From: Thermoplasmatota archaeon
Lineage (GTDB): Archaea > Thermoplasmatota > E2 > JACPAO01 > JAHFTW01
DNA: 64,000 nucleotides
Assembly: GCA_038046725.1 (NCBI GenBank)
Contig: JBBSVQ010000018.1
Coordinates: 24,168 to 88,167 of the forward strand
Direction: 5' to 3'
In this document: in pieces, positions 12,596 to 46,234 of the stretch
Numbering within the stretch: the first letter of the stretch is position 1
How the letters are laid out: each line of letters begins with the position of its first letter
Position numbers and translations under genes: made by a program
The notes under the pieces: model-generated
What the model was told of the DNA's origin: nothing
Databases searched by the model: none
What the model saw: the letters and a program-made list of their open reading frames with translations, nothing else

Positions 12596-12883
12596 GCGCC
12601 CGTTCTGGGCTTTCACGCAGGAACAACGTCTTGTGACTCCGACGCGGGGGACGAGGTCAAGCCACTGAGGCCAGGCTTGCCATCGCCGGGCGCCGCGCCC
12701 GACGCGTGGGGGACCTCGGATTCAACTGATTCCGGGCAAATTTGCCGAGAATCAGCTCAATCCAAGGTCCCCCAAACTCGCGGCGGCATCCGACTCGGCG
12801 CCGGGTTTCGCCAGGTCGTTCGGCTGGAAGTCGCCGCCGTCGGCGTCGGAAGACGTTGGACTTGTGCGAGGAAGAACGCGCGC
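12596..12883 (+). mobile_element. Family B MITE-like element
   Basis: Left GCGCCCGTTC...CAACGTCTTGTGACTCCGAC; right GTCGGCGTCGGAAGACGTTGG...GAACGCGCGC. Confidence 0.7.
12708..12773. repeat. Family A-like hairpin nested in a family B element
   Basis: GGGGACCTCGGATTCAACTGATT...AATCAGCTCAATCCAAGGTCCCC. Confidence 0.7.
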
Positions 12884-12949
12884 GGGCGACGCCCTCCGTG
12901 CAAATCCGTGCAATCCGTGGCCCTTGGACGGCGGGCCGGTGCGTCGCGC

Positions 12950-13375
12950 CTACTGCGGCGGCTTCGGCGACTGTCCGGCAGCGTCCTCGCCCTCACGCCG
13001 GGCCCCGACTTCCTCGGCCGCCGGCGTCGACTCCAGGATCTTCTTGCCCACCATGAGCCCGAGGGCCCCAAACAGGAGGGAGGCCAGGAAGCTCAGCACC
13101 GCCATGGCGCCGAGGTACTTCGCCGTCGGCGTCAGCCACACCGTGCACTTGTCGGCCGGGACGTCGTCCAGCGTGCCGTTGTCGACGACCTTGAACGAGT
13201 CCACGCAAGCGACGTCGTTGTTGACCGCCGCGATGGCCAGCCAGAGGGCAAGCAGGAAGACGCTGCTGAAGAACAGCTTGTTCATCCAGATGGCGCCGGT
13301 GCGAAAGGCCCGGTAGCCCCAGCCCTCGTCGACGGTGAACTGCGCGTCCTTCAGGATGGCCGGCTTGTCGCTCAT
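12950..13375 (-). CDS. Hypothetical two-TM membrane protein
   Basis: Two hydrophobic segments flank a loop with two Cys; divergent from the lipase gene. Confidence 0.7.
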   Translation of the reverse strand: MSDKPAILKDAQFTVDEGWGYRAFRTGAIWMNKLFFSSVFLLALWLAIAAVNNDVACVDSFKVVDNGTLDDVPADKCTVWLTPTAKYLGAMAVLSFLASLLFGALGLMVGKKILESTPAAEEVGARREGEDAAGQSPKPPQ

Positions 13376-13546
13376 TGGCGGGCGGCCGACGAGGGTGCGC
13401 GATTTGGCCCTGCCGGGCCAGCCTCGGCCTTGGCGGTTGACCTGGGGTTGCACAAGTGGACAGCGAAGAGCAGGATTGGTCATTTGCCTGTGGCACACTG
13501 TGCCCGTCCCAAAGGCACAGTTTAAGCCAGCGTGCCGACTCAAAGC

Positions 13547-14227
13547 ATGCCGATGGCTCCGAAGGCGCCACGACCAACGCGGCCGACGCCCGTGATTCTC
13601 GTGCACGGCATCCTTGGCCAGCGCCACATCTACTGGAACCTCTTCCGCCGCCGCCTGGCGCAGGACGGCTTCCGCGTGCACGAAGTCGTGCTCCCGTACT
13701 ACATGCTGGGCGACATCCGCATCGCCGCCCGCTTCCTCGCCGACAAAATCGAGGCCACCCTCGTCGGCGACAACGTGGACCGCGTCGACTTGATCTGCCA
13801 CTCCGCTGGCGGCCTCGTGGCGCGCTACTACCTGAAGTACCTCAAGGGCGACCGGCAAGTCAGCCACCTCGTGACGCTGGGCACGCCGCACCAGGGCACG
13901 TACGTCTCGTACGCCCTCGGGTTCCCCTTCATGGGCATCCTCAAGCAGACGCGCCCAGGCTCGCACTTCCTCGCCGAGGTCAATGGCCCTGGTGCCGTGC
14001 CACACAACGTGCGCATCACGAGCTTCTGGAGCCCCGTCGACGGCGTCGTGCTGCCGCCGGAGAACGCCATCCTCGCCGGCGCGAACAACATCAAGGTGTC
14101 CTGGCTGACCCATTGGGGATTCCTATGGAACCCCGCCGTGTACAGCAAGATCCGCGATGCGTTGCTCAATCATGCGGCCCGTCCCATGGCGCAGCGCACC
14201 CTGGACGAGACGCCCGCGCCCGCCTGA
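13547..14227 (+). CDS. Alpha/beta-hydrolase, lipase/esterase family
   Basis: VILVHGI oxyanion region, ICHSAGG nucleophile elbow, LGTPHQGT, SPVDGVV, THWG; TTTAAG about 25 nt upstream. Confidence 0.85.
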   Translation: MPMAPKAPRPTRPTPVILVHGILGQRHIYWNLFRRRLAQDGFRVHEVVLPYYMLGDIRIAARFLADKIEATLVGDNVDRVDLICHSAGGLVARYYLKYLKGDRQVSHLVTLGTPHQGTYVSYALGFPFMGILKQTRPGSHFLAEVNGPGAVPHNVRITSFWSPVDGVVLPPENAILAGANNIKVSWLTHWGFLWNPAVYSKIRDALLNHAARPMAQRTLDETPAPA

Positions 14228-14317
14228 TGGCTCGACGTCCAGGCGGCCAGGCTTGGTGGTACAGAGGTGTGGCGATGCCGCACAACGCTTATTGAGTCGC
14301 CCGGGTGGGCGACCTTC

Positions 14318-15769
14318 ATGCGCCTGCTCCTTGCAGTCCCCTTCCTGCTTGCCATCCTGGCCGGCTGCGTCAGCGACAACGATGGCCAGGACCCTGCCCC
14401 GCCCGTCGTCGGTGACGGCCGCCTCCTGCTCACCGACCTCCTGAACCAGACCGTCGCCAACTTGGCGAACATGACGTTCGAGTCCTCCATGGTGTACGCG
14501 GCCGTGAGCGTCGCCAACGACCTGTACGAGCCCACCATCGACGTGTGCGACGACGGCTCCATCTACATCACCGGCCACACCATCCTCGTCGACACCACGG
14601 GCGCCCCCGTCTTCGGCAGCCATGACGACGGCAAGACCTGGGCCCAGCTGCCCCTGTTGCAGTCGCTTGCCTCGCCGCTCTTCGTGCAAGGCGCCACGCC
14701 GCCCCCTTCGGACGAGATCTTCCTGTCCTGCGGCGACAACGGCTGGCTGTACGGCGTCGACATCACGCTGGCCACCTACCCCATCAACGCCTGGGACGGC
14801 TACGGCACCCGCCACGCCTACCACAACCCCAATGCGTACAACGAGGCCGAGGTCGTCACCGACGCGCAGACGGAGACCCAATGCGTCCCGGTGCCCGCCA
14901 AGGACCGCCCCTGGGGCGCATACGCCAACGGCACCCTGCTCCTGGTGAGCAACCCGGCCGGCGGCCCCGCCCAAGTCGGCGTCATGACCGCCCCGCCCGC
15001 CACGCCCGTGGCCTTGGGCACGGTCGTCAATGACATCCAGTGGAACCTGTGCGCCGGCCCCGGCGGCTCGATCCCGGGTGTCCCCGACATCCGCCACGAC
15101 GGCTTCTTCGGCGTTCCGCAGCTGTCCGGCGGCTCGCTCATGATCGTCGTGGGCAACCGCGACGACATCGCGGCCACCAACATCGTCGAGGCGTTCCCCG
15201 TCGACAGCCTCGGGGAGATCACCTCCTACTACGGCCACGTCGCCTTCGACACGCCGGGAACGATGTTCGTCGGCATCACGAACAACACCTGGCACGTCGA
15301 GCAGGTCAACGGCACGGACTTCCTTGGCCGCCCCACGGTCAGCAACGTCAACGTCGCCGATGACGGCCAGTTGCTCTTCGCCGTCAGCCTCGACGACGGC
15401 AGCACGTTCGTCAACCGCACCTACACGGTGCCCGGCAAGCCGGTGCGCCACTTCTACATGGACGCCAACGAGCAGGGCGCCGGCGCCCTCGTCGTCTGGG
15501 CCATCGACGGCTCCACGAAGAACGCCAACAACAACACTGCGGCCTGGGACTGGTACGTCGGCCACCTGCAGGTGGACGCCACCGGCGCCCCCGAGCTCAC
15601 CGGCGTCTACCTCGCCATCAATGAAGGGCCGCAGCCCAGCGCCCACGTCACCGGCGCCGCCGTCGGCCCCGATGGGCGCGCCTACCTCGCCATGTACGAA
15701 GGCGACAAGACGACACCGCTGAGCGTCTTCATCCAGCGCTCCGGCCCGACGCTGCCGAGCTGGATGTAG
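14318..15769 (+). CDS. Lipoprotein with BNR/Asp-box repeats (sialidase-like beta-propeller)
   Basis: Lipobox LLAILAGC; YEPTIDV; Asp boxes SHDDGKTW and SLDDGSTF. Confidence 0.7.
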   Translation: MRLLLAVPFLLAILAGCVSDNDGQDPAPPVVGDGRLLLTDLLNQTVANLANMTFESSMVYAAVSVANDLYEPTIDVCDDGSIYITGHTILVDTTGAPVFGSHDDGKTWAQLPLLQSLASPLFVQGATPPPSDEIFLSCGDNGWLYGVDITLATYPINAWDGYGTRHAYHNPNAYNEAEVVTDAQTETQCVPVPAKDRPWGAYANGTLLLVSNPAGGPAQVGVMTAPPATPVALGTVVNDIQWNLCAGPGGSIPGVPDIRHDGFFGVPQLSGGSLMIVVGNRDDIAATNIVEAFPVDSLGEITSYYGHVAFDTPGTMFVGITNNTWHVEQVNGTDFLGRPTVSNVNVADDGQLLFAVSLDDGSTFVNRTYTVPGKPVRHFYMDANEQGAGALVVWAIDGSTKNANNNTAAWDWYVGHLQVDATGAPELTGVYLAINEGPQPSAHVTGAAVGPDGRAYLAMYEGDKTTPLSVFIQRSGPTLPSWM

Positions 15770-15795
15770 TCGCCGGCCCGAGGCGACGACTGGCC

Positions 15796-15984
15796 GCGCG
15801 CGTTCATCCCCGCAAGCATCCAACGTCTTGTGCCCCCAACGTCGTCCGTGACAGGCAGAGACGTTCGAAGCGCGCGGCGAAGCCGCGCGAGGCGGCGCCC
15901 CGCGCCGCCATTCATCATCGCGGGGTTGTCGTCGTCGGAGTCGTCACAAGGAGGTTGACTTGTGCGAAGGCCCGGAACGGGCGC
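15796..15984 (-). mobile_element. Family B MITE-like element
   Basis: Same termini in reverse; core GCGGCGCCCCGCGCCGCCA. Confidence 0.72.
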
Positions 15985-16029
15985 GGTCTGGGACCTGCCC
16001 GCGGGAAGCATCCTGACGTTGTGATCCGT

Positions 16030-16899
16030 TCAGATGTACGGATGTCCTCGCTCGACCTTCATCTTGCGAAGCTCACGCTGCACCCGCGTGCGCACATCCT
16101 CCGCGATGGCATGCACGCGGTCCGTGTCGTCAGCGTCCTGCGGCCCGTAGTCCGAAAACGGCATCGGCTTGAGGAAGCGGATGCGCCACTTGACTGGCTT
16201 CGGCAGGATGTTCTTCGGGATGGGAATCCCGCCTTTCATGTTGAGCAGTTGCTCGTAGCCTTCGATGCGCGTGCCGACGGGGTTGCTCTCCTCGCCGCCG
16301 AGGACCGCGACGGGGATGACGGGGACCTGGTTGGCCATGGCGACGCGCACGAAGCCGCGCGCAAACGGCTCAAGCTGGTAATCGGAGCCGGGGCGGAAGG
16401 CGCCCTTCTCGCCCTCGGGGAAGAGCATCACGAGGTGGCCACGCGCCAATTGCTGCGCCATGGCGTCCTTCGTGACCTGGAAGAGCCCGACGCGCTTGGC
16501 GAAGTTGCGCGTCGCCGGCGCCTTGAACCAGGCCTCGTGAGCCATGCCGCGCGGCGTGCGCTCGAGGGCGTCGTGCACGGACAGCGCCGTCAACGCGTAG
16601 TCGAGGCCAAGCCAGCCGGTGTGGTTGGCCACGAGGAGCGCCGGCCCTTTCTCGGGGATGTGGTCGAGGCCGTCGACTTTGAGGCGGAAGTAGTTGCGCA
16701 AGGTGCGCAACGCCGGCGCGAGCTTGTTGACGAACTCGACGTCGAACGGGTCGGCCTCGTCCTGCGTCAGCGAGGGCATCACCGTGGCGGGGCGCCGCGC
16801 GACCGCGGAGCCGCCCGGCCCATCGGCCGCGGGAGCAGTTCGCCGGGTCGCCGGTTTGGCGGCCTTGGCGGCGCTCTTGCGGGCGGCGGGCACGACCAT
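16030..16899 (-). CDS. Lysophospholipid/glycerolipid acyltransferase (PlsC / MGAT-like superfamily)
   Basis: LLVANHTGWLGLD, LFPEG, RGFVRVAM...VPVIPVAV.GGEE. Confidence 0.85.
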   Translation of the reverse strand: MVVPAARKSAAKAAKPATRRTAPAADGPGGSAVARRPATVMPSLTQDEADPFDVEFVNKLAPALRTLRNYFRLKVDGLDHIPEKGPALLVANHTGWLGLDYALTALSVHDALERTPRGMAHEAWFKAPATRNFAKRVGLFQVTKDAMAQQLARGHLVMLFPEGEKGAFRPGSDYQLEPFARGFVRVAMANQVPVIPVAVLGGEESNPVGTRIEGYEQLLNMKGGIPIPKNILPKPVKWRIRFLKPMPFSDYGPQDADDTDRVHAIAEDVRTRVQRELRKMKVERGHPYI

Positions 16900-16934
16900 C
16901 GCAGGGCCTGCGAGCCTCTTGGACCCACCGCCGC

Positions 16935-17594
16935 CTAGGCGCGGCGCCGCAGGGCGGCGAGGCCCGCCAGGCCGACCAGGAGGAGCGCGGCGGGGGCGCC
17001 GGGCGCGAACTCGCTGCCCTCGCCTTGCGCCGCCTGCTCGGCTTCGAGGAGCGCGAGGCGCGCCTCGAGGGCCTCGACTTGGGCCTTCAACTCGAGTTCC
17101 GTCGGCACCGACGTCGCGGGGAAGGTAATCTCCGAGCGGTCAAGCACGGGGCCGCCCGCCTTGACGCCGGCGAGGGCGAACGTGGTGCCGTTGAATGGGG
17201 CGGAGCCGGCCATGGTGATGCCGACGACGTACTGCCCGGCTTCCGTGAGCATCAGGGGCTCGTCGAAGGTGATGCATCCGGCGTGGCCGGATTGGGCCTT
17301 GAGCGGGTGGTTGGCCCCGAAGGTCGCGCCGCTGGGCGCGGTCAAGGTGACGCGCAGCAGGTTGGCCATGGTGTCGTTGACGGCGATGGCTGTGCGGGGC
17401 GCCGCCATGTTGTGCGTGAAGCACACGTCGAGGCCGGTGACGGCGTACGTGGTGACGGGTTCGCCCAGCAAGCCGACCGATGCCACGACCTTGCCGTCGA
17501 CGGAGAAGGCATCCGTGCGCGCGCTGGCAACGGGGACCAAGACGAGGGCGGCCAGGGCGAGCGCGGCCACGGCGCGGGCGAGACGGACTTGCAT
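16935..17594 (-). CDS. Secreted cell-surface protein with coiled coil and C-terminal sorting-type anchor
   Basis: Signal peptide (AVAALALAALVLVPVASA); ELKAQVEALEARL heptads; C-terminal APGAPAALLLVGLAGLAALRRRA. Confidence 0.75.
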   Translation of the reverse strand: MQVRLARAVAALALAALVLVPVASARTDAFSVDGKVVASVGLLGEPVTTYAVTGLDVCFTHNMAAPRTAIAVNDTMANLLRVTLTAPSGATFGANHPLKAQSGHAGCITFDEPLMLTEAGQYVVGITMAGSAPFNGTTFALAGVKAGGPVLDRSEITFPATSVPTELELKAQVEALEARLALLEAEQAAQGEGSEFAPGAPAALLLVGLAGLAALRRRA

Positions 17595-17637
17595 GCGTTG
17601 CGACCGACGTCGCGCTTTAGAGCGTTGCCCGGGAGAC

Positions 17638-19152: not shown

Positions 19153-19205
19153 GCTGGCATCGAGGCCGGGGGGGCTACTTCGGCTTTGCGCGCCTTGGGG
19201 GGCGC

Positions 19206-21389: not shown

Positions 21390-21456
21390 CGCCCGTCACC
21401 GGGCCGCCCCGCGTTTGAGGCTGTTGGGTTATGTCCCCCGCCGCGGTGGCGCCAGC

Positions 21457-22149: not shown

Positions 22150-22206
22150 GGTCCGGGCAGCTCGGGCTGGCGCCTGCCGCCTCGGCTTGCGCGGTTGCGC
22201 GGCGCC

Positions 22207-23325: not shown

Positions 23326-23375
23326 AGCGCAGGCGTTCCGGCCGAACAGCTTCCGGCCGTCGCGCGTGCTGACCG

Positions 23376-24420: not shown

Positions 24421-24574
24421 CAAACGTCAGTTGACAACCAACTGGCAAACGCCAGTTGACAACGTTGGGTGACGGCGGGGGCTTCGCTTCGCTCAGCCCC
24501 CGGGAGAACCCCGCTCGGCGCCGGCGCTTCGCCTGCCGGCGGCCAAACCGCGTCGCCCTGCCAATCGCTTGAAC

Positions 24575-24744
24575 GCGCGCGTTCCTTCTCGCACAAGTCC
24601 AACGCCTTCCGACGCCGACGTCGGCGGCTTGCTCATGCGACACGCTGCCAAGAGGCGCCCCGCGCAGCCATCCCTCGTCTTGGTGTGGCCGTCGCCGGAG
24701 CCGTCGGAAGACGTTGGCCCGACATGAAAGCCCAGAACGGGCGC
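24575..24744 (-). mobile_element. Family B MITE-like element
   Basis: GCGCGCGTTC...CCAACGCCTTCCGACGCCGAC; core GGCGCCCCGCGC; ...CCCAGAACGGGCGC. Confidence 0.72.
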
Positions 24745-24772
24745 TGTCTTGCTTGCCCAGCGAAGTGAAATC

Positions 24773-26080
24773 ATGGCCGCGAGTGCCCCAACTGTGTCCC
24801 GACCGCAGCCCCCCGCCGAAGAGCAAGCCCTCGGCCTGCGGTCCTACCTCACCACGACGCCCGGCATCGGCGGCAAGCTGCGCACGGAAGCCGAGGACTT
24901 CGTCGTCATCGAGACCGGCGCCGGCCCCGACCGCTTCGACGCCGGCGCACACACGGCCGCCCGCGTGCGACTGAAGAACTGGGAGACCAACCGCTTCGCC
25001 GGCCAGGCCGCGCGCGTGCTGGGAATCCACCATGACCAAGTCGCCTTTGCGGGCATGAAGGACAAGCGCGCCGTCACCGAGCAATGGTTCACGTTCAAGG
25101 TTCCGCCCTCCGCCCTCGGTGAGTTGGGCAAGCTCGCGGACGTGCAGGTGCTCGAATCGTACGCGACGCGCAAGGCGCACTTCACGGGCGCGCACGCCGG
25201 CAACAAGTTCGTGCTGCGCGTGCGCGACTCCACGCGTGACCGCCAAGCCGTCGAGGGCGCCGTCGCCGCCATCCGCAGCGAAGGCGGCGTTCCGAACTTC
25301 TTCGGCCCGCAGCGCTTCGGCGGCCACTTCCGCCCCGTCACGCACCTCGTCGGCAAGGCCCTCGTGGAGGCCGACCTCGAGGAGGCCGTGCGCCTGTATG
25401 CCGGCAACCCGATGCCGGGAGAGCAGGAGGAGGCGCAAGCCGCGCGCAAGGTGTACGACGACACCCGCGACCCCGCCGCCGCCTTGGAGCTGTACCCGCC
25501 CAAACTCGACCCGGAACGCGCCATCCTGCAGCGCCTCGTCAAGCGGCCCGGCGACTTCCGCTACGCCATGCAGGCACTGCCAGAGAACCTCGTGCAGCTC
25601 TTCGTGCACGCCCACCAGTCGTGGCTGTTCAACCAGATTCTGTCGGCGCGCGTCGAAGCGGGCCTCGGCCTCGGCACGGCCCATGAGGGCGACCTCGTCA
25701 TGGGCGTCGACGACGACGGAATCCGCGTCCACAAGGTGTCCGCCATCAACCAAGCCAAGGTGCAGCGGGAACTGGACCTCGGCCGCGCCACGATTACGGC
25801 GCCCCTCGTCGGCCTCAGCAGCCCGCTCGCGAGCGGCGCCCCGGGCGAGATCGAGGAGGCCGTGCTCCTGGAGAATGACATCCAACCGCAGGACTTCCGC
25901 GTGCGCGAGCTTCCCGAAGTCGCCTCCGACGGGCGGCGCCGCGGCATCCTGCAACCCGTGCGCGACCTCGACGTCACCTGGGTCGACGGCGACCCGGTCT
26001 TCGCCTTCGCCCTCGGCAAGGGCAGCTACGCCACCGTCGTGCTGCGGGAATTCATGAAGGCGCCCATCGCCGACTACTAG
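24773..26080 (+). CDS. truD: tRNA pseudouridine(13) synthase
   Basis: GIGGKLRTEAEDFVVIE, FAGMKDKRAVTEQW, GNKF, PNFFGPQRFG, FALGKGSYATVVLRE. Confidence 0.95.
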   Translation: MAASAPTVSRPQPPAEEQALGLRSYLTTTPGIGGKLRTEAEDFVVIETGAGPDRFDAGAHTAARVRLKNWETNRFAGQAARVLGIHHDQVAFAGMKDKRAVTEQWFTFKVPPSALGELGKLADVQVLESYATRKAHFTGAHAGNKFVLRVRDSTRDRQAVEGAVAAIRSEGGVPNFFGPQRFGGHFRPVTHLVGKALVEADLEEAVRLYAGNPMPGEQEEAQAARKVYDDTRDPAAALELYPPKLDPERAILQRLVKRPGDFRYAMQALPENLVQLFVHAHQSWLFNQILSARVEAGLGLGTAHEGDLVMGVDDDGIRVHKVSAINQAKVQRELDLGRATITAPLVGLSSPLASGAPGEIEEAVLLENDIQPQDFRVRELPEVASDGRRRGILQPVRDLDVTWVDGDPVFAFALGKGSYATVVLREFMKAPIADY

Positions 26081-26095
26081 GAGACGCCGCCCAAC

Positions 26096-26158: not shown

Positions 26159-26185
26159 GGTCGGGGGCTGGCCTTGGTTCGCTGT

Positions 26186-29639: not shown

Positions 29640-29649
29640 GCCGCCGACT

Positions 29650-29813
29650 GCGCCCGTTCGGTGAGCCATGCTGATGCCATGACTGTGACGCCGACGGCGA
29701 CGACCAGCAGAACGTGGTGAATGGCGGCGCGGGGCGCCGCTGCGAATGACGTTCAGTGGGCAAACCGCTGTCGGCGTCGGAAGTCACTGGCTTGTGCGAG
29801 GGGGCCCGCGCGC
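29650..29813 (+). mobile_element. Family B MITE-like element
   Basis: GCGCCCGTTCGGTG...GTGACGCCGACGGCG; core TGGCGGCGCGGGGCGCCGC; GTCGGCGTCGGAAG...TTGTGCGAG. Confidence 0.7.
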
Positions 29814-29824
29814 TGGCGGCGGTT

Positions 29825-30784: not shown

Positions 30785-30850
30785 CGCGCGGCGGACAAGC
30801 CGGCCGGATAAGAAGGTGGGGGGCCTGCGAGGAGAATCGACGACTCCGGC

Positions 30851-30911
30851 GACCGCGCCCGTTCGGTGAGCTGCATCCGTCAACCTCCTTGTGACGCCGA
30901 CTCCGACGGCC
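30851..30911 (+). mobile_element. Family B left-end fragment
   Basis: GACCGCGCCCGTTCGGTG...GTCAACCTCCTTGTGACGCCGAC. Confidence 0.65.
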
Positions 30912-30957
30912 AGCTCAAGACAATGCAACGGGTGCCGGGCGCCCGGCCGTTTGGACC

Positions 30958-31020
30958 CAGGGAAAACCACAGAAGCGAGGGAACGCACGAGAGGTTCTGT
31001 GGGATTCTGTTCTTTCCCGG
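30958..31020. repeat. Degenerate family A hairpin
   Basis: CAGGGAAAACCACAGAA ... TTCTGTGGGATTCTGTTCTTTCCCGG. Confidence 0.55.
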
Positions 31021-31052: not shown

Positions 31053-31703
31053 CTAGGCCGGGTTCGAACCCAGCGCCCGCACGATGCCGGCCAGGAGCGT
31101 GCTGGGGACGACGGCGAGCACGTTGCCGTCGGCAACCGCCGCCACCTCGCGCAGGCGCGCCGCCATGTGGGCCTCGCGGGCGTCCTCGACGCGCCGCATT
31201 CCCCGTGGGCGCGTCCACGCCGCATCCCAGTTCGCGGCGACGTCGTACGCGTCCGTTCCCGTGACGCCGCGCTTGAGCAGGCGCGACTTGATGCCGTTGG
31301 ACTGGATGATGTGGTGGAAGCGCACGTGCTTGGTGTACAGCGTCGCGTGCGCGTCGTCGTCGAGGTCCAAGGCGCTCAAGGGCACGCCGTCGGCGCGGGC
31401 GACCTGGTGCGCGATTTCGAGGTCGGGGCTGGGCACACGCGTCGCCCCGAACGGCGCAAGCAGTCCCATCAGGCGCTCGTGCGTGTCGTCCAGCGGCGGG
31501 AGCTCCGCCGGCGCGGCGCTCGCGGACGCCAAGGTGTCCAGCGTCGCCAGGTCCTCGGGCGGGACTCCCAAGGCGACGACGCGGGGGTGGAAGGCCTCGT
31601 AGGCCTGGCGCACACGCTCGCCGTCGGGGACGAAGCCGGCGATGGTGCCGAGCAGGAGGACGGGGTTGCCGGCGACGTCGAGCCTGGCTTGGGGGGTGCC
31701 CAC
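31053..31703 (-). CDS. Conserved hypothetical protein, TraB-like
   Basis: LLGTIAG...RVRQAYEAFHPRVVALG and REAHMAARL resemble TraB/PrgY-like proteins (from memory, not searched). Confidence 0.55.
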   Translation of the reverse strand: MGTPQARLDVAGNPVLLLGTIAGFVPDGERVRQAYEAFHPRVVALGVPPEDLATLDTLASASAAPAELPPLDDTHERLMGLLAPFGATRVPSPDLEIAHQVARADGVPLSALDLDDDAHATLYTKHVRFHHIIQSNGIKSRLLKRGVTGTDAYDVAANWDAAWTRPRGMRRVEDAREAHMAARLREVAAVADGNVLAVVPSTLLAGIVRALGSNPA

Positions 31704-31867
31704 GCCGTTGCCACGGGGGTCTCCCGGATGACCATTGCGACGACCCCCATTCGTTCGTCTGCCCCGGACGGGCTTGCCTCCGGCCTGGCCGACGCCGGAG
31801 CGTGTCCGCGCCGCCCCAATCCTTGATAACCGGCCGCACGGTTGGCCACAAGCGAGCACAGGCAGCC

Positions 31868-32266
31868 ATGAAGATCGACATCGGAACGGAAGGCAAGATC
31901 CTCGGGACCAAGAAGGTCAGCCCCAACGGCCAGGTCTCGGGCCTGTCCGAGTACGCCGGCGAGGAAGTCCTCATCATCTACCCGGGCCCGCGCGAGCCGC
32001 GCATCAAGATGGACGCCAAGGACTACGTCCACGAAGTCGAGAAGGCCGTGCAGAACCAGATGAAGGGCGCCTTCCAGCAGTACAAGGCCCTCAAGGCGAA
32101 GTACAAGGACGAGACGACGGCGACGCGCGAATTCATCCGCGCCAAGAGCCCGCAGAACTTCCAGGGCCTCATCGAATCCGTCGACGCCTGGGTGGCCGGC
32201 CAGGTCGGCAAGGCCGAGAAGAAGGTTGCCGAGAAGCTTGGCGACGACGACGAACAGAACGTTTGA
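31868..32266 (+). CDS. AbrB-like (DUF2080-type) N-terminal domain plus amphipathic helical C-terminus
   Basis: KKVSPNGQVSGLSEYAGEEVLII swapped-hairpin-like pattern; Lys/Glu-rich helices follow. Confidence 0.6.
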   Translation: MKIDIGTEGKILGTKKVSPNGQVSGLSEYAGEEVLIIYPGPREPRIKMDAKDYVHEVEKAVQNQMKGAFQQYKALKAKYKDETTATREFIRAKSPQNFQGLIESVDAWVAGQVGKAEKKVAEKLGDDDEQNV

Positions 32267-32312
32267 CGACGCGTCACCAACGCTGAAGACCCCGGGCCCT
32301 CGTGGGTGGCAG

Positions 32313-32714
32313 GTGCAGCGCCTCGCCGCAGTCCTTCTCTTGGCTGCCCTTGCCGGGTGCGCCCAACCCCTGACCGGGGCCGACGTCGAGGTCGCCGAGT
32401 ACCTGATTTCGCGGGACAACGACTTGCTTCAGCAGGCTTCCGGCGGCGGCGTCTCCACGGCCACTTGCGCGGTCGGCAAACACGTTCACCTCCTGATGCT
32501 CGAAGGGGCCGCTGATTGGACGGATCCCGCCGGTTGGCGCGTCCTAGTCGGCGAGACGAGGCTGATTGCCGTGGAGGTCGACTTGCTGCAGGGAACCTTG
32601 TACGTCTACGCGTGCCTCTCGCCGGGCGAGACCGTTTCTCGGCTGCGCTACGAACGCGGCAGCGAGGTGCTCGCCACGGCCGTGGTGGACATCGAGCCGA
32701 CGATGGCGTCGTGA
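32313..32714 (+). CDS. Hypothetical lipoprotein
   Basis: Lipobox LLAALAGC after a GTG start. Confidence 0.55.
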   Translation: MQRLAAVLLLAALAGCAQPLTGADVEVAEYLISRDNDLLQQASGGGVSTATCAVGKHVHLLMLEGAADWTDPAGWRVLVGETRLIAVEVDLLQGTLYVYACLSPGETVSRLRYERGSEVLATAVVDIEPTMAS

Positions 32715-32822
32715 ATTCGCTGCGCCGAGAAAACGCAGGGCTCTGTGCGGTCTGGGGGTTCCCAGGGCGCCCGACGGCAGGTCGCGGCGCCATCTCCTGA
32801 AGCGTCGGTGAGGTTGTCGTGG

Positions 32823-32877
32823 CCCCCGGAGTCGGAGGAAGGAGGTTGACTGATGCGGCCACCGAACGGGCGCGGTC
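32823..32877 (-). mobile_element. Family B left-end fragment (inverted)
   Basis: GGAGTCGGAGGAAGGAGGTTGAC...CACCGAACGGGCGCGGTC. Confidence 0.65.
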
Positions 32878-32886
32878 GACCAACAA

Positions 32887-35618: not shown

Positions 35619-35671
35619 TTTCGGCCGGTCGTCTCACGAGCCGCGGATTTCGCGAATGACGGCGGACTTCC

Positions 35672-35872
35672 GCGCCCGTTCTGGGCTCCCACGACAATCC
35701 AGCGCCTTGTGACGCCGACGGCGGCCACGACGTCAACCGGATGATGCCGTCCATTGGCGGCGCGGGGCGCCGCCTCGGCGCGCTTCGCGCGCCGCTTCGT
35801 CAAATGGTTGAGTTGGAAGTCGCCGGAGTCGGCGGAGGAAGTCGTTGGACCGTAGCGAGGATGAACGCGCGC
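35672..35872 (+). mobile_element. Family B MITE-like element
   Basis: GCGCCCGTTCTGGG...TTGTGACGCCGACGGCG; core TGGCGGCGCGGGGCGCCGC; GTTGGAC...GAACGCGCGC. Confidence 0.75.
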
Positions 35873-36021
35873 GGCCGCGACCGGACCGATGACCATCGAT
35901 TCGCGCACAAGGCCTGACCCGAATGCGCGCGAATCCGCGAAAATCAGCCGCTTCGCGGGCAACTCCGCGCTTTCAGCCCGCGCAGCGAGACCATCAAGTA
36001 GCCCGAGGTTTTTCCCCAGGC

Positions 36022-37037: not shown

Positions 37038-37050
37038 ACCCGGTCCGCGG

Positions 37051-37998: not shown

Positions 37999-38042
37999 CC
38001 AACCCGCCCGAGGTGCCTTGGCCTGATGCCCGGTGAAGGCGC

Positions 38043-39290: not shown

Positions 39291-39303
39291 CGACGGCGCC
39301 CGG

Positions 39304-39366
39304 ACAGGGATGACGGGGAGATCGGGGATGACGAACCACATCCCCGGGCATCACCGAGATCCCTGT
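39304..39366. repeat. Family A-like hairpin (GGGATG units)
   Basis: ACAGGGATGACGGGGAGATCGGGGATG ... CATCCCCGGGCATCACCGAGATCCCTGT. Confidence 0.7.
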
Positions 39367-39415
39367 TTCGTCGGTCGTCGGTCACCGGGCTCCACGGGAA
39401 GGGGACCTTGGACGC

Positions 39416-40777: not shown

Positions 40778-40858
40778 CCGCCACGCCCGCCCCCAAAGCT
40801 CCTCCTCCCAAGCCACAGATTTCGCAGATCAACGCAGATGTTGGACCAGCGGACGACG

Positions 40859-41045
40859 GCGCGCGTTCCTCCTCGCAATCGCCCAGCGTCTTCCGACGCC
40901 GACGTCGTGGGTTTGCACGTGCTGGATGCTGCGAAACGCCGCGCAAAGCGCGGCGAGCGGCGCCCCGCGCCGCCAATCTGCGTCATCGGCTAGCCGTGCC
41001 CGGAGTCGTCACAAGGAGGTTGACTGGCATGGCATGAACGGGCGC
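40859..41045 (-). mobile_element. Family B MITE-like element
   Basis: GCGCGCGTTC...GTCTTCCGACGCCGAC; core GCGGCGCCCCGCGCCGCCA; GTCACAAGGAGGTTGAC...GAACGGGCGC. Confidence 0.75.
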
Positions 41046-41133
41046 CGTCGTGCACTCGGAACCAGGGGCCCGGGCGCAATCGGTAGGGGGCACGGGAAAC
41101 GCCTAGGACCCCCCAGAGGTGGCACGCCTGACA

Positions 41134-41655
41134 ATGGTCCGCATCGCCCTCACTGGCACCCCCGGCGTCGGCAAGACCAGCCTCGCCAAGGTTGCCGCCG
41201 AGCACGGCTGGCGCGTCGTGGACGTCAAGGCCTGGGCGCGGGCGGAGGGCTGCATCGCCGGCCACGATGCCGAGGACGAGGCGGACGCCATCGACGTCGA
41301 AGCCCTCGCGGAGCGCGTGCCGGCGGACGATGGCTCGAACGTCCTGTACGAAGGCCACCTCAGCCACTTCCTCGACCTCGACGAAGCCTGGGTCGTGCGC
41401 TGCGATCCGGCGGTCCTGCGCGGCCGCCTGGTGGCGCGCGGCTACCGCCCAGCCAAAGTGGTGGAGAACCTTGAGGCCGAAGCCCTGGACATCATCTTGC
41501 AGGAGGCCCTCGACGTGGTGCCCCGCGTCATCCAGAGGGACGGCACGCGCCGGAGGCCCGAAGCCCTTTTTGCGGCATTTGCCGACTCCCCTCGCGCAGC
41601 CGCTAAAGGCCACGACCTGGAACCGGTCGACTGGAGCAGCCAGCTCCCCTTCTGA
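41134..41655 (+). CDS. AK6/Fap7-type adenylate kinase
   Basis: ALTGTPGVGKTS, EGHLSH, RC.P..L..RL..RGY...KV.EN.EAE. Confidence 0.88.
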   Translation: MVRIALTGTPGVGKTSLAKVAAEHGWRVVDVKAWARAEGCIAGHDAEDEADAIDVEALAERVPADDGSNVLYEGHLSHFLDLDEAWVVRCDPAVLRGRLVARGYRPAKVVENLEAEALDIILQEALDVVPRVIQRDGTRRRPEALFAAFADSPRAAAKGHDLEPVDWSSQLPF

Positions 41656-41730
41656 GACAGGCCACAACCCTCCTCTCTGACGGCTTCCCCCACCCTCCCC
41701 CAACCCAACCGAACCCCCGCGTGTTGCCTG

Positions 41731-42387
41731 ATGGTTTTGGACAATTACCGCACGACCCTCGACTGGTGGCTGGTGCCGCTGGCCAAGGCCTTTCGCCACA
41801 TCCACCCGGATGTCTTCACCTGGCTCAGCCTCGTTGCCGCCGTCGCCGGCGGTGTGGCATTCTGGAAGTCGGACGCCACCGACGCCGGCTTGCCCCTGCT
41901 GCTTGCCGCCTGGGCCTGTGTCCTGCTCAACTCCGTCCTCGACCTCCTCGACGGCAAGGTCGCCAAGCTCACCGGCAAGGCCACGCCGCGCGGCGACTAC
42001 CTCGACCACGCCATCGACCGCTTCAGCGACACGTTGTTCCTGCTCGGCATCGCCTTCAGCGGATGGGCCCGCCTCGAGATCGGCGTCCTCGCCCTGACCG
42101 GGACGCTGCTCACCTCGTACATGGGGACGCAGGCGCAAGCCGTGGGCCTGAAGCGCAACTACTCGGGACTGCTGGGCCGCGCCGATCGCATGGTCCTGAT
42201 GCTCATCATCCCCGTCGCCGACTGGTTTTGGGCCCGCCAAGACTACGCCGCCCCATGGGAATCCGTCGGGTTCCAGTCGATGCTGGAAATCATGTTGGCG
42301 TACTTCGCCCTCATGGGGATCCTCACGACGGCGCAGCGCTTCATCGGCGGCCTGCGCGGCTTCGGGGCCGACGGCCGCGTCAAGTAG
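41731..42387 (+). CDS. CDP-alcohol phosphatidyltransferase (archaeal polar-lipid synthase family)
   Basis: DLLDGKVAK.TG..TPRGDYLDHAIDRFSD signature. Confidence 0.9.
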   Translation: MVLDNYRTTLDWWLVPLAKAFRHIHPDVFTWLSLVAAVAGGVAFWKSDATDAGLPLLLAAWACVLLNSVLDLLDGKVAKLTGKATPRGDYLDHAIDRFSDTLFLLGIAFSGWARLEIGVLALTGTLLTSYMGTQAQAVGLKRNYSGLLGRADRMVLMLIIPVADWFWARQDYAAPWESVGFQSMLEIMLAYFALMGILTTAQRFIGGLRGFGADGRVK

Positions 42388-42426
42388 CCGCGCCAACCCC
42401 GGATTGGTCGCGGCAGGTCGCCCGCC

Positions 42427-42488
42427 AACCACGAATTGCACGAATGGCACGAAACCGCCAATTCGTGGGCTTCGTGCAATTCGTGGTT
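42427..42488. repeat. Family A hairpin (CACGAAT units)
   Basis: AACCACGAATTGCACGAATGGCACGAA ... TTCGTGGGCTTCGTGCAATTCGTGGTT. Confidence 0.88.
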
Positions 42489-42494
42489 CAGCGT

Positions 42495-43124
42495 TCAGCG
42501 CAGGCGCAGACTGACCGCCACGCCGTCTCGCACCGGCATGAGCGTGCTCAGGAAGGCCGGGTCCGTGAAGGCGCGGTGGTTGTACTCCTTGACGGCCTTC
42601 GTCGCCGCGTCCTTTGACTTCAGGAGAACCTTCCCTTGCCAAAGCGAGTTGTCCGTGATGACGAGGCCGCCGACGCGCACGCGCTTGCGCGCCAAGTCCC
42701 AGGCGTCGACGTAGTCTTCCTTGTCGATGTCGATGAAGACGACGTCGTTGAGGTGCTTGTCGACCTTCAGCAAGTCGCAGGCGTCCCCCAGGCGGAAGTC
42801 CACGCGGCGCACCAGCTTCCCCTTGCGCAGCCACTGCATGGCCTCGCGGGACAGCGCCTCATCGGTCTCGGTGTGCACGACGGTGCCCCCAGCGCCGACG
42901 GCGCGGGCGAACCACGCCGTGGAGTAGCCGAAGCCGGAGCCAAGTTCGAAGACGCGCTTGGCATGGATGGAGCGCGCCAATTGCTCGCACAGGCGCCCGA
43001 CGAGCGGCCCAATGATGGGGAAGCCGCGCTTCTCGCCCGACAGGCGCATGGCCTGCAGGACGGCATCTGGGGACGGCTGCAGGTCGCGCAGGTACAGCTC
43101 GATGCCCGGGTCCACGAGGTCCAT
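42495..43124 (-). CDS. O-methyltransferase (caffeoyl-CoA OMT-like)
   Basis: FELGSGFGYS, FIDIDK..Y, TDNSLWQG. Confidence 0.88.
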   Translation of the reverse strand: MDLVDPGIELYLRDLQPSPDAVLQAMRLSGEKRGFPIIGPLVGRLCEQLARSIHAKRVFELGSGFGYSTAWFARAVGAGGTVVHTETDEALSREAMQWLRKGKLVRRVDFRLGDACDLLKVDKHLNDVVFIDIDKEDYVDAWDLARKRVRVGGLVITDNSLWQGKVLLKSKDAATKAVKEYNHRAFTDPAFLSTLMPVRDGVAVSLRLR

Positions 43125-43161
43125 CGCGAGGACATCGCGTCCTTCGGCATGAACCTTGCCG

Positions 43162-43827
43162 CTACACGCGCTCGTTGACGCACATCTGGACGTGCTGCAA
43201 ACTCGCCGCCACGCTGCGTTTGGCCGCGTCGCCTTCCGGGCTTGCCCCGTGTCCCGGATGCAGCACGCGCACCGGGAGCTTGCCCAGACGCTTGATGCTG
43301 GCGTCCATGACTTTCAGGTCGCCGTCGGGGAAGTCGAAGCGTCCAATGCCGCCGTCCGCGAACAACGTGTCGCCCGAGAACAGGGTTCCACTGGCCTCGT
43401 TCCAATAACACGTCGCCCCCGGTGCGTGGCCGGGCGTCTCGAGGACGGCGAAGGGTGCGCCGCCGAACGTCACGGTGTCGCCGTCGGAGACGACGTCGTC
43501 GACGGTGAGTTGCACGATGCGTGCCCCGAAGCGCTCGGAAGTGGGGTCGCGGCCAGTGAAGAGTTTTTCGGCGCAGCGCGGGCTGGCCACGATGCGGGCG
43601 CCGAGGGACTTGTAGTGCGGCAAGCCGTTGACGTGGTCGAGGTGCTCATGCGTCACGGCGACGCACTTGATGCGGTGCGGGTCCGTGACGGCCGCGATTT
43701 CCTTCAGGACGTTTTGGAAATCCATGCCGTGGCCGGCGTCAACCATGTCGTAGGAATTGCTGGTCGGGTCCTTGACGAGGAATTGGTTGCAGTCCCAGCC
43801 ACGGCCACCAAGCCGGAGCACGTTCAT
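43162..43827 (-). CDS. Metallo-beta-lactamase-fold hydrolase
   Basis: THEHLDH, TPGHAPG, FSGD, HPGHG. Confidence 0.9.
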   Translation of the reverse strand: MNVLRLGGRGWDCNQFLVKDPTSNSYDMVDAGHGMDFQNVLKEIAAVTDPHRIKCVAVTHEHLDHVNGLPHYKSLGARIVASPRCAEKLFTGRDPTSERFGARIVQLTVDDVVSDGDTVTFGGAPFAVLETPGHAPGATCYWNEASGTLFSGDTLFADGGIGRFDFPDGDLKVMDASIKRLGKLPVRVLHPGHGASPEGDAAKRSVAASLQHVQMCVNERV

Positions 43828-44939
43828 GTGGGTTGCACCGCGGGTTTCTTGGCGGCCAGGAACAGCAGCGCCTGGCCGGCGCATGCCCCGATGGCGCTTG
43901 CCAGGTTCGATAGGGGATTCGTCAATTGGTACGCCGCAAATCCGCGCGTCGCGTCCTCGGGGCTGGATTCCTCGCCCCAGTGGCGCACGACGGCCTCGAA
44001 GACGCGCGCCTGCAGGTCGTCGCGTGCCTTGGCCGAGTCCGCCACGACGGCGCCAAGGGCCGCGAGGTCGCTGTCGCGCAAGGCCGGCAGAAGGCGGCCA
44101 AGCAAATCGCGGGCTTCGCGAACCGCCGTCCGGTGGCCCTGCAGGATGTCGCGGGCGACGGGGGGCTGCGGGTCCCGTTTGGGCAGGCGGCGAAGGACGT
44201 CCTCGCGCGGGTAGGCGAGGTCCTGCAGGCTGAGGCCGAGATCGCGTAGGACGGTTTGTGCGATGGCGAGCGCCTGCGACCCGACGCCGTCGAGCAGGAA
44301 GGCCGCCATGTCCAGGAGTTGGAAGTCGCTGACGGATTCGAGGGGGAGGTCGAGGGTGGCGACGCGGCGGAGGGTCTGGTGCAGGATGCGCGAGACGTCC
44401 TCCTCCTGGATGGATTGCAGCAGGCGGGCGGCGTGCACGACGCGTTCGGGGTCGTTGCTGGCGTGCTCGACGCATTCGGCGGCCAGGTCCAGGGTCTGCG
44501 TCAGGCGCGCGCCCATGACCTGCAACAGGTCTGTCGGCGGGTTGCTTCCCCCGGGCGGCATGGTGAATCCGATGAGGTCGGGGCCGACGGTGGCGACGAT
44601 GCGTTCGTCGAGGTGGCGCAGGAGGTCGCGAGCGGCGGCAATGGCGTCGTTGGGGAAGCGGTCCGTTGGCCGCAACTCGACTTTCTCGTAGCCGCGCACG
44701 TAGGCGGACAGGAGCGTGATGCGCAGGAGGGGGACGCCTGCGGGCGCGGTGGCCACGTAGGTTCGGTCCTGCACGACGGGGACGATGAGCAGGGAGCCCG
44801 AGATGAGGTGCAAGTCGACCTCGCGGCCTTCCTGTTGCTGCTGCGTCCAACTGTCGATCCACTTCTTCGGCAGGTACACCGACCAGGCGCCGGACCCGAC
44901 GCGGGTGACGCGCTTGCGCTTGATGGGTTCCACAATCAT
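43824..44939 (-). CDS. AbrB-PhoU-type archaeal regulator
   Basis: RVTRVGSGAWSVYLPKKW AbrB-like N-terminus, then helical PhoU-like repeats. Confidence 0.7.
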   Translation of the reverse strand: MIVEPIKRKRVTRVGSGAWSVYLPKKWIDSWTQQQQEGREVDLHLISGSLLIVPVVQDRTYVATAPAGVPLLRITLLSAYVRGYEKVELRPTDRFPNDAIAAARDLLRHLDERIVATVGPDLIGFTMPPGGSNPPTDLLQVMGARLTQTLDLAAECVEHASNDPERVVHAARLLQSIQEEDVSRILHQTLRRVATLDLPLESVSDFQLLDMAAFLLDGVGSQALAIAQTVLRDLGLSLQDLAYPREDVLRRLPKRDPQPPVARDILQGHRTAVREARDLLGRLLPALRDSDLAALGAVVADSAKARDDLQARVFEAVVRHWGEESSPEDATRGFAAYQLTNPLSNLASAIGACAGQALLFLAAKKPAVQPT

Positions 44940-44971
44940 GCAGAACGCAGCGGACTTACGTAAGTCTGGCG

Positions 44972-46018
44972 TTAGCTGTTGAACATCGGGTCGCGCTTGG
45001 ACTTCCACAACTCGAGGGGGTCGCGCTCGAGCTCTTCCTCATGCGTGGGCAGCATCTTGACGATGGCCTGCTTGAGTTCGTCCACGCCTTTGCCGGTGTG
45101 GACGCTGAAGCTGACGCGGTCCGACGCCGGCGCCGCGCGCTCCACGTCGGCCTTCGTTTCGGCCACGAGCAACGGGATGCCGGCCATCTCGCGCTTGACT
45201 TGGGCGAGGAGGCTCTCCTGCTCGGCCATGGAGTAGCCGGAGAGGACGGTCGGATCGATGAGGAACAGGACGGCATCCGCCGTGTGGCGCAGGGCCGCAA
45301 CGGCTTGGCGTTCGACGGGGTTGCGCTTGGCGTCGGGGCGGTCGAGCAGGCCGGGCGTGTCCACGACCTGGACCTTCACGGGTGGCTCGCCGGGGCCGCC
45401 GGGGACCTCGAAGTGGCCGACGTTGGCGTTCTTCGTCGTGAAGGCGTACGCGGCAATCTCGGGGTGCGCCTTCGTCCACGCCGCAAGCAGGCTCGACTTG
45501 CCCACGTTGGGGAAGCCGGCGATGACGACGGTTGCGTACTCGGGGTGGACCTGGGGGAGCATGCGAACGGTGTCGCGGGCCTTGCCGAGGAAGGCCAAGT
45601 CAGCCTCGACGTCGTACAGGATGCTGGAGCAGCGGCCGGAGAAGCGGCGCTTCTGCTGCTGGATGCCAAGCGTCGTGCGTTCGCGGCGCATGGCGGCGGA
45701 GACCTCCTGGTACACTTGGCCAATGGTCTCCTCGGCCCACTGGATGTTGGCGAGCGACTTCTTGAGCTGGTCCATGCCGACGAGGATGTCGAGGACTTCC
45801 TGCTCGTACTGCGGCAGACGCTCCAAGGTGGGAACCGAGTCGAGGAAGCGCTGCAGGTCCTCCCGCGTTGACTCCGCGATGTGCTTCATCTGGACCTCCT
45901 CCGTCTTGCGGATGCGATGGTACTTGTCCGGGTCCGGGACCTCGAGCTTGTTCGCCTTGAGGAACGCCTTGTCCAGGATCTCCTGTGCCGTCAAGACGGT
46001 CGGCACACGGTCCAGCAT
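44972..46018 (-). CDS. NOG1-family GTP-binding protein
   Basis: AGFPNVGKSS, YAFTTK, DTPGLLDRP, ETKAD. Confidence 0.9.
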   Translation of the reverse strand: MLDRVPTVLTAQEILDKAFLKANKLEVPDPDKYHRIRKTEEVQMKHIAESTREDLQRFLDSVPTLERLPQYEQEVLDILVGMDQLKKSLANIQWAEETIGQVYQEVSAAMRRERTTLGIQQQKRRFSGRCSSILYDVEADLAFLGKARDTVRMLPQVHPEYATVVIAGFPNVGKSSLLAAWTKAHPEIAAYAFTTKNANVGHFEVPGGPGEPPVKVQVVDTPGLLDRPDAKRNPVERQAVAALRHTADAVLFLIDPTVLSGYSMAEQESLLAQVKREMAGIPLLVAETKADVERAAPASDRVSFSVHTGKGVDELKQAIVKMLPTHEEELERDPLELWKSKRDPMFNS

Positions 46019-46143
46019 GGGCTTTCCGACAAGGGGGTCCTATATCATCGTGGTGGGCCTCGGATTCCCTCGGGTTCAACGATTTTTCCCCAGGATTCAA
46101 CGCATTTGGGCGTGAACCGACCCGGGTTCCTAGCAAGGCGAAC

Positions 46144-46234
46144 GCGCCCGTTCGGTGCCCCACATTCGTTAACCTCCTTGTGACGCCGACGGCGACGGCC
46201 CGCCCACCGTGATGAATGACGGCGCTAGGCGCCG
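46144..46234 (+). mobile_element. Family B partial element (left end plus core)
   Basis: GCGCCCGTTCGGTG...AACCTCCTTGTGACGCCGACGGCG...GAATGACGGCGCTAGGCGCCGC. Confidence 0.62.

Follow-up and report, generated by a model that had tools for sequence, protein, structure and literature searches.

Foldback repeats in the intergenic DNA of a Thermoplasmatota archaeon: a probable non-autonomous mobile element

What moves or maintains small hairpin repeats in archaea, and do such repeats act as single-stranded DNA? They are well studied in bacteria but their archaeal counterparts are poorly known, and in the searchable literature we found no description of such elements in Thermoplasmata or uncultured Thermoplasmatota. 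The question is raised here by a stretch of 64,000 nucleotides (G000:C18:24168-88167, hereafter the window) from the metagenome-assembled genome (MAG) of an uncultured Thermoplasmatota archaeon (G000; 2.07 Mb, 46 contigs, 68% G+C, 86% complete), which carries many copies of a short intergenic element that we call family B. [quoted passage not shown] We propose that family B is probably a lineage-restricted, non-autonomous foldback element of mobile DNA, similar in kind to MITEs and to REPINs (hairpins formed by two inverted REPs). It offers a clean case for the question above, being dense, old, conserved in blocks and restricted to one lineage, with neither a duplication footprint nor a recognisable transposase.

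Census, anatomy and gene context

The genome was searched with a profile hidden Markov model (HMM; nhmmer) built from the six complete window copies. This count, which the earlier note had proposed, revealed 112 non-overlapping family B loci, corresponding to 54 loci per Mb and 0.93% of the DNA. Full-length copies number 64, with a median of 200 bp and a range of 167–330 bp; the complete copies in the window span 174–298 bp, and the size of 165–290 bp given earlier is corrected to these values. The partial loci comprise 21 B-side halves and 27 others, several of which are A-side halves. Within the window the end motif GRCCGCGCSCGTTC (at most one mismatch) occurs 14 times against 1.5 expected, a number reached in none of 100 shuffles, and the core TGGCGGCGCGGGGCGCCGC (at most two mismatches) occurs six times against 0.08 expected; the copies number nine, six complete and three B-side halves, numbered c1 to c9 along the window. 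Could the motifs simply be as common in coding DNA? Of 185 genomic occurrences of the 10-nt end motifs, 143 lie in recognised copies, and the 42 solo occurrences that are left compare with about 38 expected from base composition. The end motif therefore does not characterise coding DNA in general. At least one copy is interrupted by a gap in the assembly, and in another a homopolymer run is artefactual. In or beside hairpin 2 (described below), copies at C10:129127-129373, C19:9380-9592 and C1:75315 show N stretches or runs such as GGGGGGGCCCCCCCCCCCCC, probably because sequencing or assembly went wrong at the very stable G+C hairpins, and the copy counts should be read with caution for this reason.

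All copies were oriented from A end to B end. The terminal 10-mers, GCGCGCGTTC at A and GAACGGGCGC at B, are 93–100% conserved per position in 59 copies. With the adjoining bases the A terminus reads (C)GAC(G/C)-GCGCGCGTTC and the B terminus GAACGGGCGC-GGTC(G), which gives 14-nt terminal inverted repeats (GACSGCGCGCGTTC / GACCGCGCCCGTTC) with imperfect arms of about 50 nt. About 20 nt further inward, the A arm carries the subterminal block CCAACGTCTTCCGACGCCGACG and the B arm the block CGTCGGCGTCACAAGGAGGTTGAC. The alignment of the copies bears out the earlier description of intergenic elements in both orientations, with conserved blocks and diverged spacers. For the structure analysis we used a trimmed alignment of 45 copies (A2) and its RNAalifold consensus, as well as a covariance model (R1) built from 45 genomic copies. 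The two termini pair with each other except for one G·G mismatch, which is retained in 43 of the 45 aligned copies. The apex consists of two small hairpins, of which hairpin 2 is GGCGGCGC-CCC-GCGCCGCC, with the loop CCC in 39 of 45. Single copies are predicted to fold as a long imperfect rod with both hairpins at its tip, and for copy c7 the predicted fold is unusually stable both as DNA (−64.8 kcal/mol, z = −3.4) and as RNA (−109 kcal/mol, z = −3.7), with 0 of 200 dinucleotide shuffles as stable in either case. The element has a defined direction, as c7 scores 182 bits with R1 on one strand and 71 on the other.

Is this fold maintained as structure or as sequence? Overall, 82.7% of cells in the 45 copies are paired, against 30–50% when partners are shifted by 1–3 columns. 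The 33 pairs of the long arms are paired in 81–85% of cells, the variation there is mainly one-sided with many mismatches left uncompensated, and two-sided change of any kind is found in only seven of the 33. The long arms behave as conserved sequence, without compensatory change. Hairpin 1 is a different matter: CG and GC are swapped on both sides in five of its eight stem pairs, 94.9% of cells are paired, and 4–5 compensatory stem variants exist, the four main ones (CGCGCGCC, CGGCGCGC, CGCCGCGC and CGCGCGGC) each being perfectly paired. Its loop is GNA in all 32 cases (27 GAA, 3 GCA, 1 GGA and 1 GTA), always closed by a C-G pair, and hairpin 1 is the GCGNAGC mini-hairpin motif. Such mini-hairpins are extraordinarily stable as DNA and much weaker as RNA, and they have been reported at single-strand initiation sites in phage and plasmid replication (2026 review, PMC13037366). 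Hairpin 1 is optional, being absent from about 30% of copies, for example c3 and c4. We considered that it may be an independent mobile palindrome and rejected this, since the genome has 37 perfect 8-bp G+C hairpins looped by GAA or TTC, and 36 of them lie inside family B.

The element is non-coding: copies differ by indels whose lengths are not divisible by three, and they share no conserved reading frame. The B arm contains the Shine-Dalgarno-like AAGGAGGT, which together with a following start codon could have donated a ribosome-binding site to downstream genes. In-frame, coding-like continuations are found in about 5–7 of 57 cases, which by a rough, informal estimate is what chance allows, and AAGGAGGT does not appear to be used systematically. 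The real start of the gene downstream of c8 is conserved outside the element.

The gene context was derived from a crude gene call based on G+C content at third codon positions (GC3). Every checked copy is intergenic, and apparent copies within genes turned out to be over-extended open reading frames of this gene caller. Family B is enriched between convergent genes (31 of 92 loci, against a background of 18–20%; p = 2e-4 to 1e-3) and depleted between divergent ones (6 of 92, against 18–23%; p = 2e-3 to 3e-5). Its orientation relative to the flanking genes is random (30 vs 25), and no orientation bias was found with respect to GC skew, gene-strand bias or neighbouring copies. Such a distribution is to be expected where selection against promoter disruption filters the insertions; a leader or a promoter-driven RNA gene would give a different one. 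Together with their nested partners, family B copies account for a considerable share of the genome's intergenic sequence, and they can mislead gene callers.

Despite the divergence of the copies, conservation exceeds 90% in hairpin 2, in the subterminal blocks and at the termini, and a perfect terminal 10-mer is retained in 16 of the 21 B-side half copies. These blocks, conserved in old and diverged copies, are therefore under selection, either at the level of the element, where only intact lineages keep moving (e.g. by cut-and-paste), or through an acquired role at the level of the host.

Relatives, footprints and rival readings

The comparison covered 13 genomes of the genus, G000 included, together with 12 genomes from the same family, six from the same order and ten from the same class. 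Relatives were scored with R1 on 59 candidates per genome, and the counts per genome are lower bounds. Clear matches are found only within the genus, in G003 (at least 54), G011 (at least 15), G007 (at least 15) and G010 (at least 7), with a single marginal match in G012 (E 4e-4); there are none in the seven other congeners or in the same-family, same-order and same-class genomes. The closest relatives, G003 and G011, are about 85% identical to G000 in lonB and glyA, and their version of the element has the same architecture with other termini. Those of G003 are GGCGCCGTTC...GAACGGGCCC, likewise with a conserved mismatch; in G000 these 10-mers are no commoner than chance predicts, and a search of that genome with an HMM of G003 copies brings up no extra loci. 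Since differences of termini across a whole species cannot arise by site-by-site selection, the copies of each species descend from species-specific sources.

Comparison of filled and empty sites, also proposed in the earlier note, points in the same direction. The c8 site in the glyA spacer lacks the element in all five aligned relatives (G003, G006, G007, G011 and G012), the spacer at lonB that holds c7 in G000 lacks about 335 nt in G003 and G011, where R1 has no match, and the c4 site of G011 holds other repeats and no family B element. Conversely, four G003/G011 copies with both flanks placeable in G000 (L012, L023, L028 and L029) correspond to sites without an element in G000. Two further copies lie beside an orthologous gene that also neighbours a G000 copy, at a different distance or in a rearranged position, and are ambiguous; the remaining two sites were not placeable. 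Insertion sites are mostly not shared, and therefore family B moved as DNA after speciation. Beyond these genomes, public genome contigs were scanned for GCGCGCGTTC-N150-180-GAACGGGCGC, and the best 80 of 115 stretches yielded one weak model match (25 bits); these are chance matches in G+C-rich bacteria and give no distribution. The public runs that contain the organism are all DNA metagenomes of groundwater and soil, and contigs from a second-site metagenome have the same c8 junction, with no informative joints seen.

If family B moved, what traces did the movement leave? No target-site duplication was found in 59 copies scanned with k = 2–8 and boundary offsets of 0–8, the best excess being 13 dinucleotide matches against 6 expected, with nothing for k ≥ 4; there is also no transposase in the window. 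Both points agree with the earlier note. An autonomous parent was sought as well, and the assembly (86% complete) contains no long high-identity repeats and no end pairs at the spacing of an insertion sequence (IS). The PF04986 (IS91) profile gave no match even in the control genomes and so carries no information here. G000:C1:229500-233800 is an island of low G+C (52–60%) with the genome's sole DDE_Tnp_1 transposase, flanked by inverted repeats of about 35 nt beginning GGCCAG; this unit is probably an IS4/IS5-like element acquired from elsewhere.

We suggest the following scenario for family B as a mobile foldback element. Its unlike ends A and B would pair into the long imperfect stem, crowned by a modular apex in which the invariant GC hairpin is always present, joined by an optional GNA mini-hairpin or a nested palindrome of another repeat family, family A. 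The element would be moved in trans by an enzyme recognising the conserved termini, most likely acting on folded single-stranded or cruciform DNA; such a substrate is suggested by the conserved terminal mismatch, the DNA-type C-GNA-G loop and the compensatory stem variants. The mechanism may be nearer to duplication-free HUH or recombinase types than to DDE cut-and-paste, and the mobiliser is presumably not encoded in recognisable form in the assemblies. Insertions would survive mainly at the 3' ends of genes because those on the promoter side are selected against, and the conserved blocks would remain under selection for mobility or for a secondarily acquired host role. A bolder idea, which we regard as doubtful, is that families B and A together are an archaeal counterpart of the REPIN system and its REP-associated tyrosine transposase (RAYT), i.e. 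a long-lived population of vertically inherited hairpin replicators acting as folded single-stranded DNA. They would be mobilised by an enzyme encoded in single copy and of a kind that current transposase models miss, because no HUH, TnpB or IS110 gene is found in the element-carrying genomes, and the GNA mini-hairpin and the terminal mismatch could then serve as recognition features.

Several observations weigh against a mobile element. No mobilising enzyme was found in searches for Y1/RAYT, TnpB, IS110, DDE and tyrosine recombinase genes. PF01797 (Y1/RAYT/IS200) has matches in 0 of the 13 genus genomes (in 6 of the 14 reference genomes used as control), and PF07282 (TnpB) has none above cut-off in the same 13; PF01548 (IS110) occurs within the genus only in G012, as one gene in a genome with a single marginal family B match; and tyrosine recombinase gene counts are uncorrelated with the presence of the element. 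The search for an autonomous IS or recombinase with the same ends, as the earlier note had envisaged, turned up nothing of the kind, the sole DDE IS of G000 having unrelated ends (GGCCAG...). Moreover, the copies in G000 are all old, with pairwise identity of at most 79% and a mean of 58%, and nearest-neighbour identity among 20 copies in G003 is at most 70%. Since no nearest neighbours are closer than this, recent transposition is not demonstrated and young copies are absent, though G000 is a MAG of 86% completeness and near-identical young copies may have been lost in short-read assembly. The spacer upstream of the gene for the small subunit of replication factor C (RFC) carries c5 in G000 and a full copy in G003 in the same orientation, which may reflect shared descent or a permissive site, and intergenic DNA is too diverged between the species for any empty site to be base-exact.

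How do other explanations fare? Part of this evidence would also fit a host-maintained structural unit of intergenic DNA or mRNA, in the manner of REPs and bacterial interspersed mosaic elements (BIMEs), kept by purifying selection and mobile only historically. Such a unit, which we consider unlikely, might be a protein-binding or cruciform site, or a 3'-end hairpin terminating or stabilising transcripts. It would account for old copies (at most 79% identical to the nearest) with termini and core conserved above 90%, for the enrichment at gene 3' ends, for the failure to find a transposase, and for half copies that could hardly transpose two-endedly and still keep a perfect B end in 16 of 21. 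However, the absence of the element from most congeners and from all other genera sampled means that there is no general need for it, sites are not shared between species, and the species-wide difference in termini is a pattern that site-by-site selection cannot yield. Random orientation, in addition, permits only a strand-symmetric role. Archaeal transcription termination relies on oligo-T tracts, and none were seen by eye in the copies read. Neither the patchy distribution nor the species-specific termini can be explained by a purely host-functional element of the REP/BIME type; family B may still have gained a host role secondarily.

The structured RNA of the earlier note, that is, genes for rod-like RNAs acting in trans or as cis-regulatory leaders, has in its favour the very stable predicted RNA fold (−109 kcal/mol, z = −3.7), the compensatory changes in hairpin 1 and the conservation of the Shine-Dalgarno-like AAGGAGGT in one arm. 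We nevertheless think this very improbable and do not uphold it. The 33 arm pairs are conserved as sequence, with two-sided change in only seven and mismatches uncompensated; orientation relative to the neighbours is random, with depletion on the promoter side; no TATA-like A+T-rich tract was noticed by eye in the G+C-rich copies read; a start codon in frame with the downstream gene follows AAGGAGGT only at a rough chance level; and sites differ between species. Rfam gave no match over the window at gathering score, and at a permissive threshold only chance-level matches to miRNA hairpins, while the GNA triloop is a motif of stability in DNA (PMC13037366). RNA-level effects in read-through transcripts may still occur. 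Even less can be said for folded recombination sites, of the integron attC or Xer/dif type, used by a site-specific recombinase with the mismatch determining strand choice. The imperfect palindrome, terminal boxes with GTTC/GAAC, the conserved mismatch and the lack of target-site duplication all resemble such sites. Yet family B occurs as single scattered copies in both orientations among syntenic housekeeping genes (truD, RFC, lonB, dinB and glyA), gene order is kept in relatives without the element and there is no cassette array, tyrosine recombinase gene numbers vary independently of the element, and the GTT/AAC boxes are reversed relative to attC R''/R'. Genomic context largely refutes this explanation, which we hold to be the least probable of all, and a mobile foldback element is the reading that we retain.

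Copies in the window, their neighbours and nested repeats

The window copies were placed by R1. Marker proteins encoded in the window, LonB (TIGR00764), TruD and the RFC small subunit, are archaeal, and gyrase A and B are also present. The reference anatomy is that of c2 (15791-15989, plus strand, complete, 199 bp, 152.7 bits). Its A-end terminal inverted repeat GGCCGCGCGCGTTC (15792-15805, +) matches the motif exactly and is followed on the same strand by hairpin 1 (15871-15889), a GCGAAGC-type mini-hairpin with an 8-bp G+C stem and a GAA triloop closed by C-G, then by the near-invariant hairpin 2, or 'core' (15891-15909), the Shine-Dalgarno-like sequence in the B arm (15948-15955), which is kept in most copies, and the B-end terminal inverted repeat GAACGGGCGCGGTC (15975-15988). 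The other complete copies vary on this theme. The long variant c1 (12591-12888, minus strand, 298 bp, 106.6 bits) has, according to alignment and fold, a nested palindrome of about 80 nt made of family-A-type units (~12692-12787) in place of hairpin 1. Two copies are short variants without hairpin 1, c3 (24570-24749, plus strand, 130 bits) and c4 (29645-29818, minus strand, 94.6 bits), the latter with a degenerate A end and directly downstream of the RFC small-subunit gene. The best-scoring copy, c7 (35667-35877, minus strand, 211 bp, 181.6 bits), lies downstream of lonB, and c8 (40854-41050, plus strand, 197 bp, 146.3 bits) downstream of glyA, which encodes serine hydroxymethyltransferase. 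The 3' boundary of c3 is 25 nt ahead of the truD ATG (c3 and gap, window 24570-24774). No A+T-rich promoter-like tract was seen in the c3–truD gap, and therefore truD is probably co-transcribed with the upstream gene through c3.

The half copies are c5 (30850-30995, minus strand, 33 bits), in which a B end, a B arm and a hairpin resembling the core precede a family-A-type palindrome, and which lies about 60 nt upstream of the RFC start; c6 (32762-32878, plus strand), which R1 matches weakly (12 bits) and whose 14-nt B end is perfect; and c9 (46139-~46250, minus strand, 41 bits), which begins directly after the stop codon of the upstream gene. The earlier count of about ten copies, six of them complete, stands as regards the six; the total is nine, as we reject the match at 17387-17405, a core-like 19-mer without arms that sits within the GC3-supported reading frame 16935-17594 (−) and is a chance match. 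We also rejected the possibility that c5 and c6, whose B ends are perfect, inverted and 2 kb apart, bound a composite transposon, the enclosed genes being syntenic core genes in relatives, without Pfam domains. Between the RFC gene and a TPR gene there are three genes without a Pfam match, at 31053-31660(−), 31802-32266(+) and 32226-32714(+). The middle one encodes 154 residues (MKIDIGTEGKILG...) and is 77–87% identical at the DNA level in 12 of 12 congeners; its product is therefore a conserved protein of unknown function. In the gyrB-gyrA spacer (window 56982-57150) the family B model has a weak match (22.5 bits, E = 2e-4), with A-arm-like CCTCCGCCGACG and B-arm-like GAAGACGTTG, and an arm-like GGAGGT there is the apparent Shine-Dalgarno sequence of gyrA. 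The match may mark the remains of a copy or may be accidental.

Family B copies are accompanied by a second type of repeat, family A, with arms of three 9–10-nt units (CACGGATTGG-type and CGCAGAT-type) that form palindromes. Family-A repeats are found in the window at 48503-48561, 60997-61023, 12895-12921 and 40813-40839, the last consisting of three such units, CACAGATTT CGCAGATCAA CGCAGAT, on the plus strand and pointing towards the A end of c8. They adjoin family B copies or nest inside them. In seven long copies, e.g. c1, C10:162661, C44:30548 and C35:5192, a palindrome of family-A units takes the place of hairpin 1. Genome-wide, the units are enriched about 7-fold at 15–45 nt outside A ends, and there they point inward in 22 cases against one in the other orientation (Poisson p = 2e-12). 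Similar unit repeats fill the spacer downstream of glyA in G003 and G006, both of which lack family B there. With its exchangeable apex modules and adjoining family-A units, family B is thus a mosaic, comparable in style to BIMEs. A third repeat family in G000, absent from the window, comprises about 19 copies of ATGGGGGTCCAGGGGGCCCGCAGGGCCCCCTAGCCCAGG (e.g. C10:124753, C40:22069 and C11:79755) and includes the hairpin GGGGGCCC-GCA-GGGCCCCC, another GNA triloop.

Comparison with known systems

Prokaryotic MITEs, among them the Correia elements of Neisseria and the MITEs of Sulfolobus, Halobacterium and Haloquadratum, are reviewed in PMC10969869. Like them, family B is about 200 bp long, non-coding, multi-copy and intergenic, has inverted ends and forms long hairpins, differs in its insertions between related genomes and nests with other repeats. 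Unlike them, it leaves no target-site duplication, and the genome has no autonomous IS whose ends match it. Nearly the entire element is taken up by the inverted repeat, and its copies are all old and conserved in blocks, not the products of a recent burst. The similarity to MITEs and REPs noted at first is therefore one of behaviour: strict MITE membership fails on target-site duplication and parent IS, with the other MITE features that were tested all present, and membership among REPs or REPINs fails on the missing RAYT. The latter elements (PMC3116915; bioRxiv 10.1101/2021.07.10.451892) also consist of two inverted halves in one hairpin, with conserved ends, a variable spacer, singlets beside doublets, extragenic location and no duplication, and they too form persistent, lineage-specific populations without recent bursts that probably act as single-stranded DNA. 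Unit size also sets family B apart: its halves measure about 90 nt, compared to 20–40 nt for a REP, and its termini are GCGCSCGTTC, with no GTAG or CGTC tag. No RAYT/Y1 HUH gene is found in the 13 genus genomes, and the host is an archaeon; no archaeal REPIN-RAYT system was found in the literature searched. The doublet (64 in number), singlet and extragenic features, on the other hand, are shared.

Elements derived from IS200/IS605, such as palindrome-associated transposable elements (PATEs) or relics of TnpB and its omega-RNA, differ from family B in both features compared: PF01797 and PF07282 are absent, and terminal inverted repeats are present, whereas IS200/IS605-derived elements have subterminal hairpins without terminal inverted repeats. 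Integron attC sites form tandem cassette arrays beside intI, with R''/R' boxes RYYYAAC ... GTTRRRY, in contrast to family B, which is dispersed among syntenic core genes in both orientations and has the reverse arrangement of boxes. Enterobacterial BIMEs are mosaics, as is family B, with its apex holding a GNA hairpin, none, or a palindrome of triple family-A units. The sequences are unrelated, and the known BIME partners, IHF, gyrase and Pol I, are bacterial.

CGTC-tagged REP dimers (Di Nocera et al. 2013, PMC3733652) have no transposase of their own. Like family B they are abundant palindromes without an associated transposase gene, are found mainly downstream of genes, and occur mostly as head-to-head dimers whose structured spacers contain small stem-loops. 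The building plans differ, as these REPs are bacterial and have stems of 8–9 bp with loops of 4–5 nt, while in family B the arms are long and composite, the termini are specific 10-mers and two hairpins form the apex. Still, they provide the closest precedent for an abundant palindromic repeat that persists without a dedicated transposase (PMC3733652).

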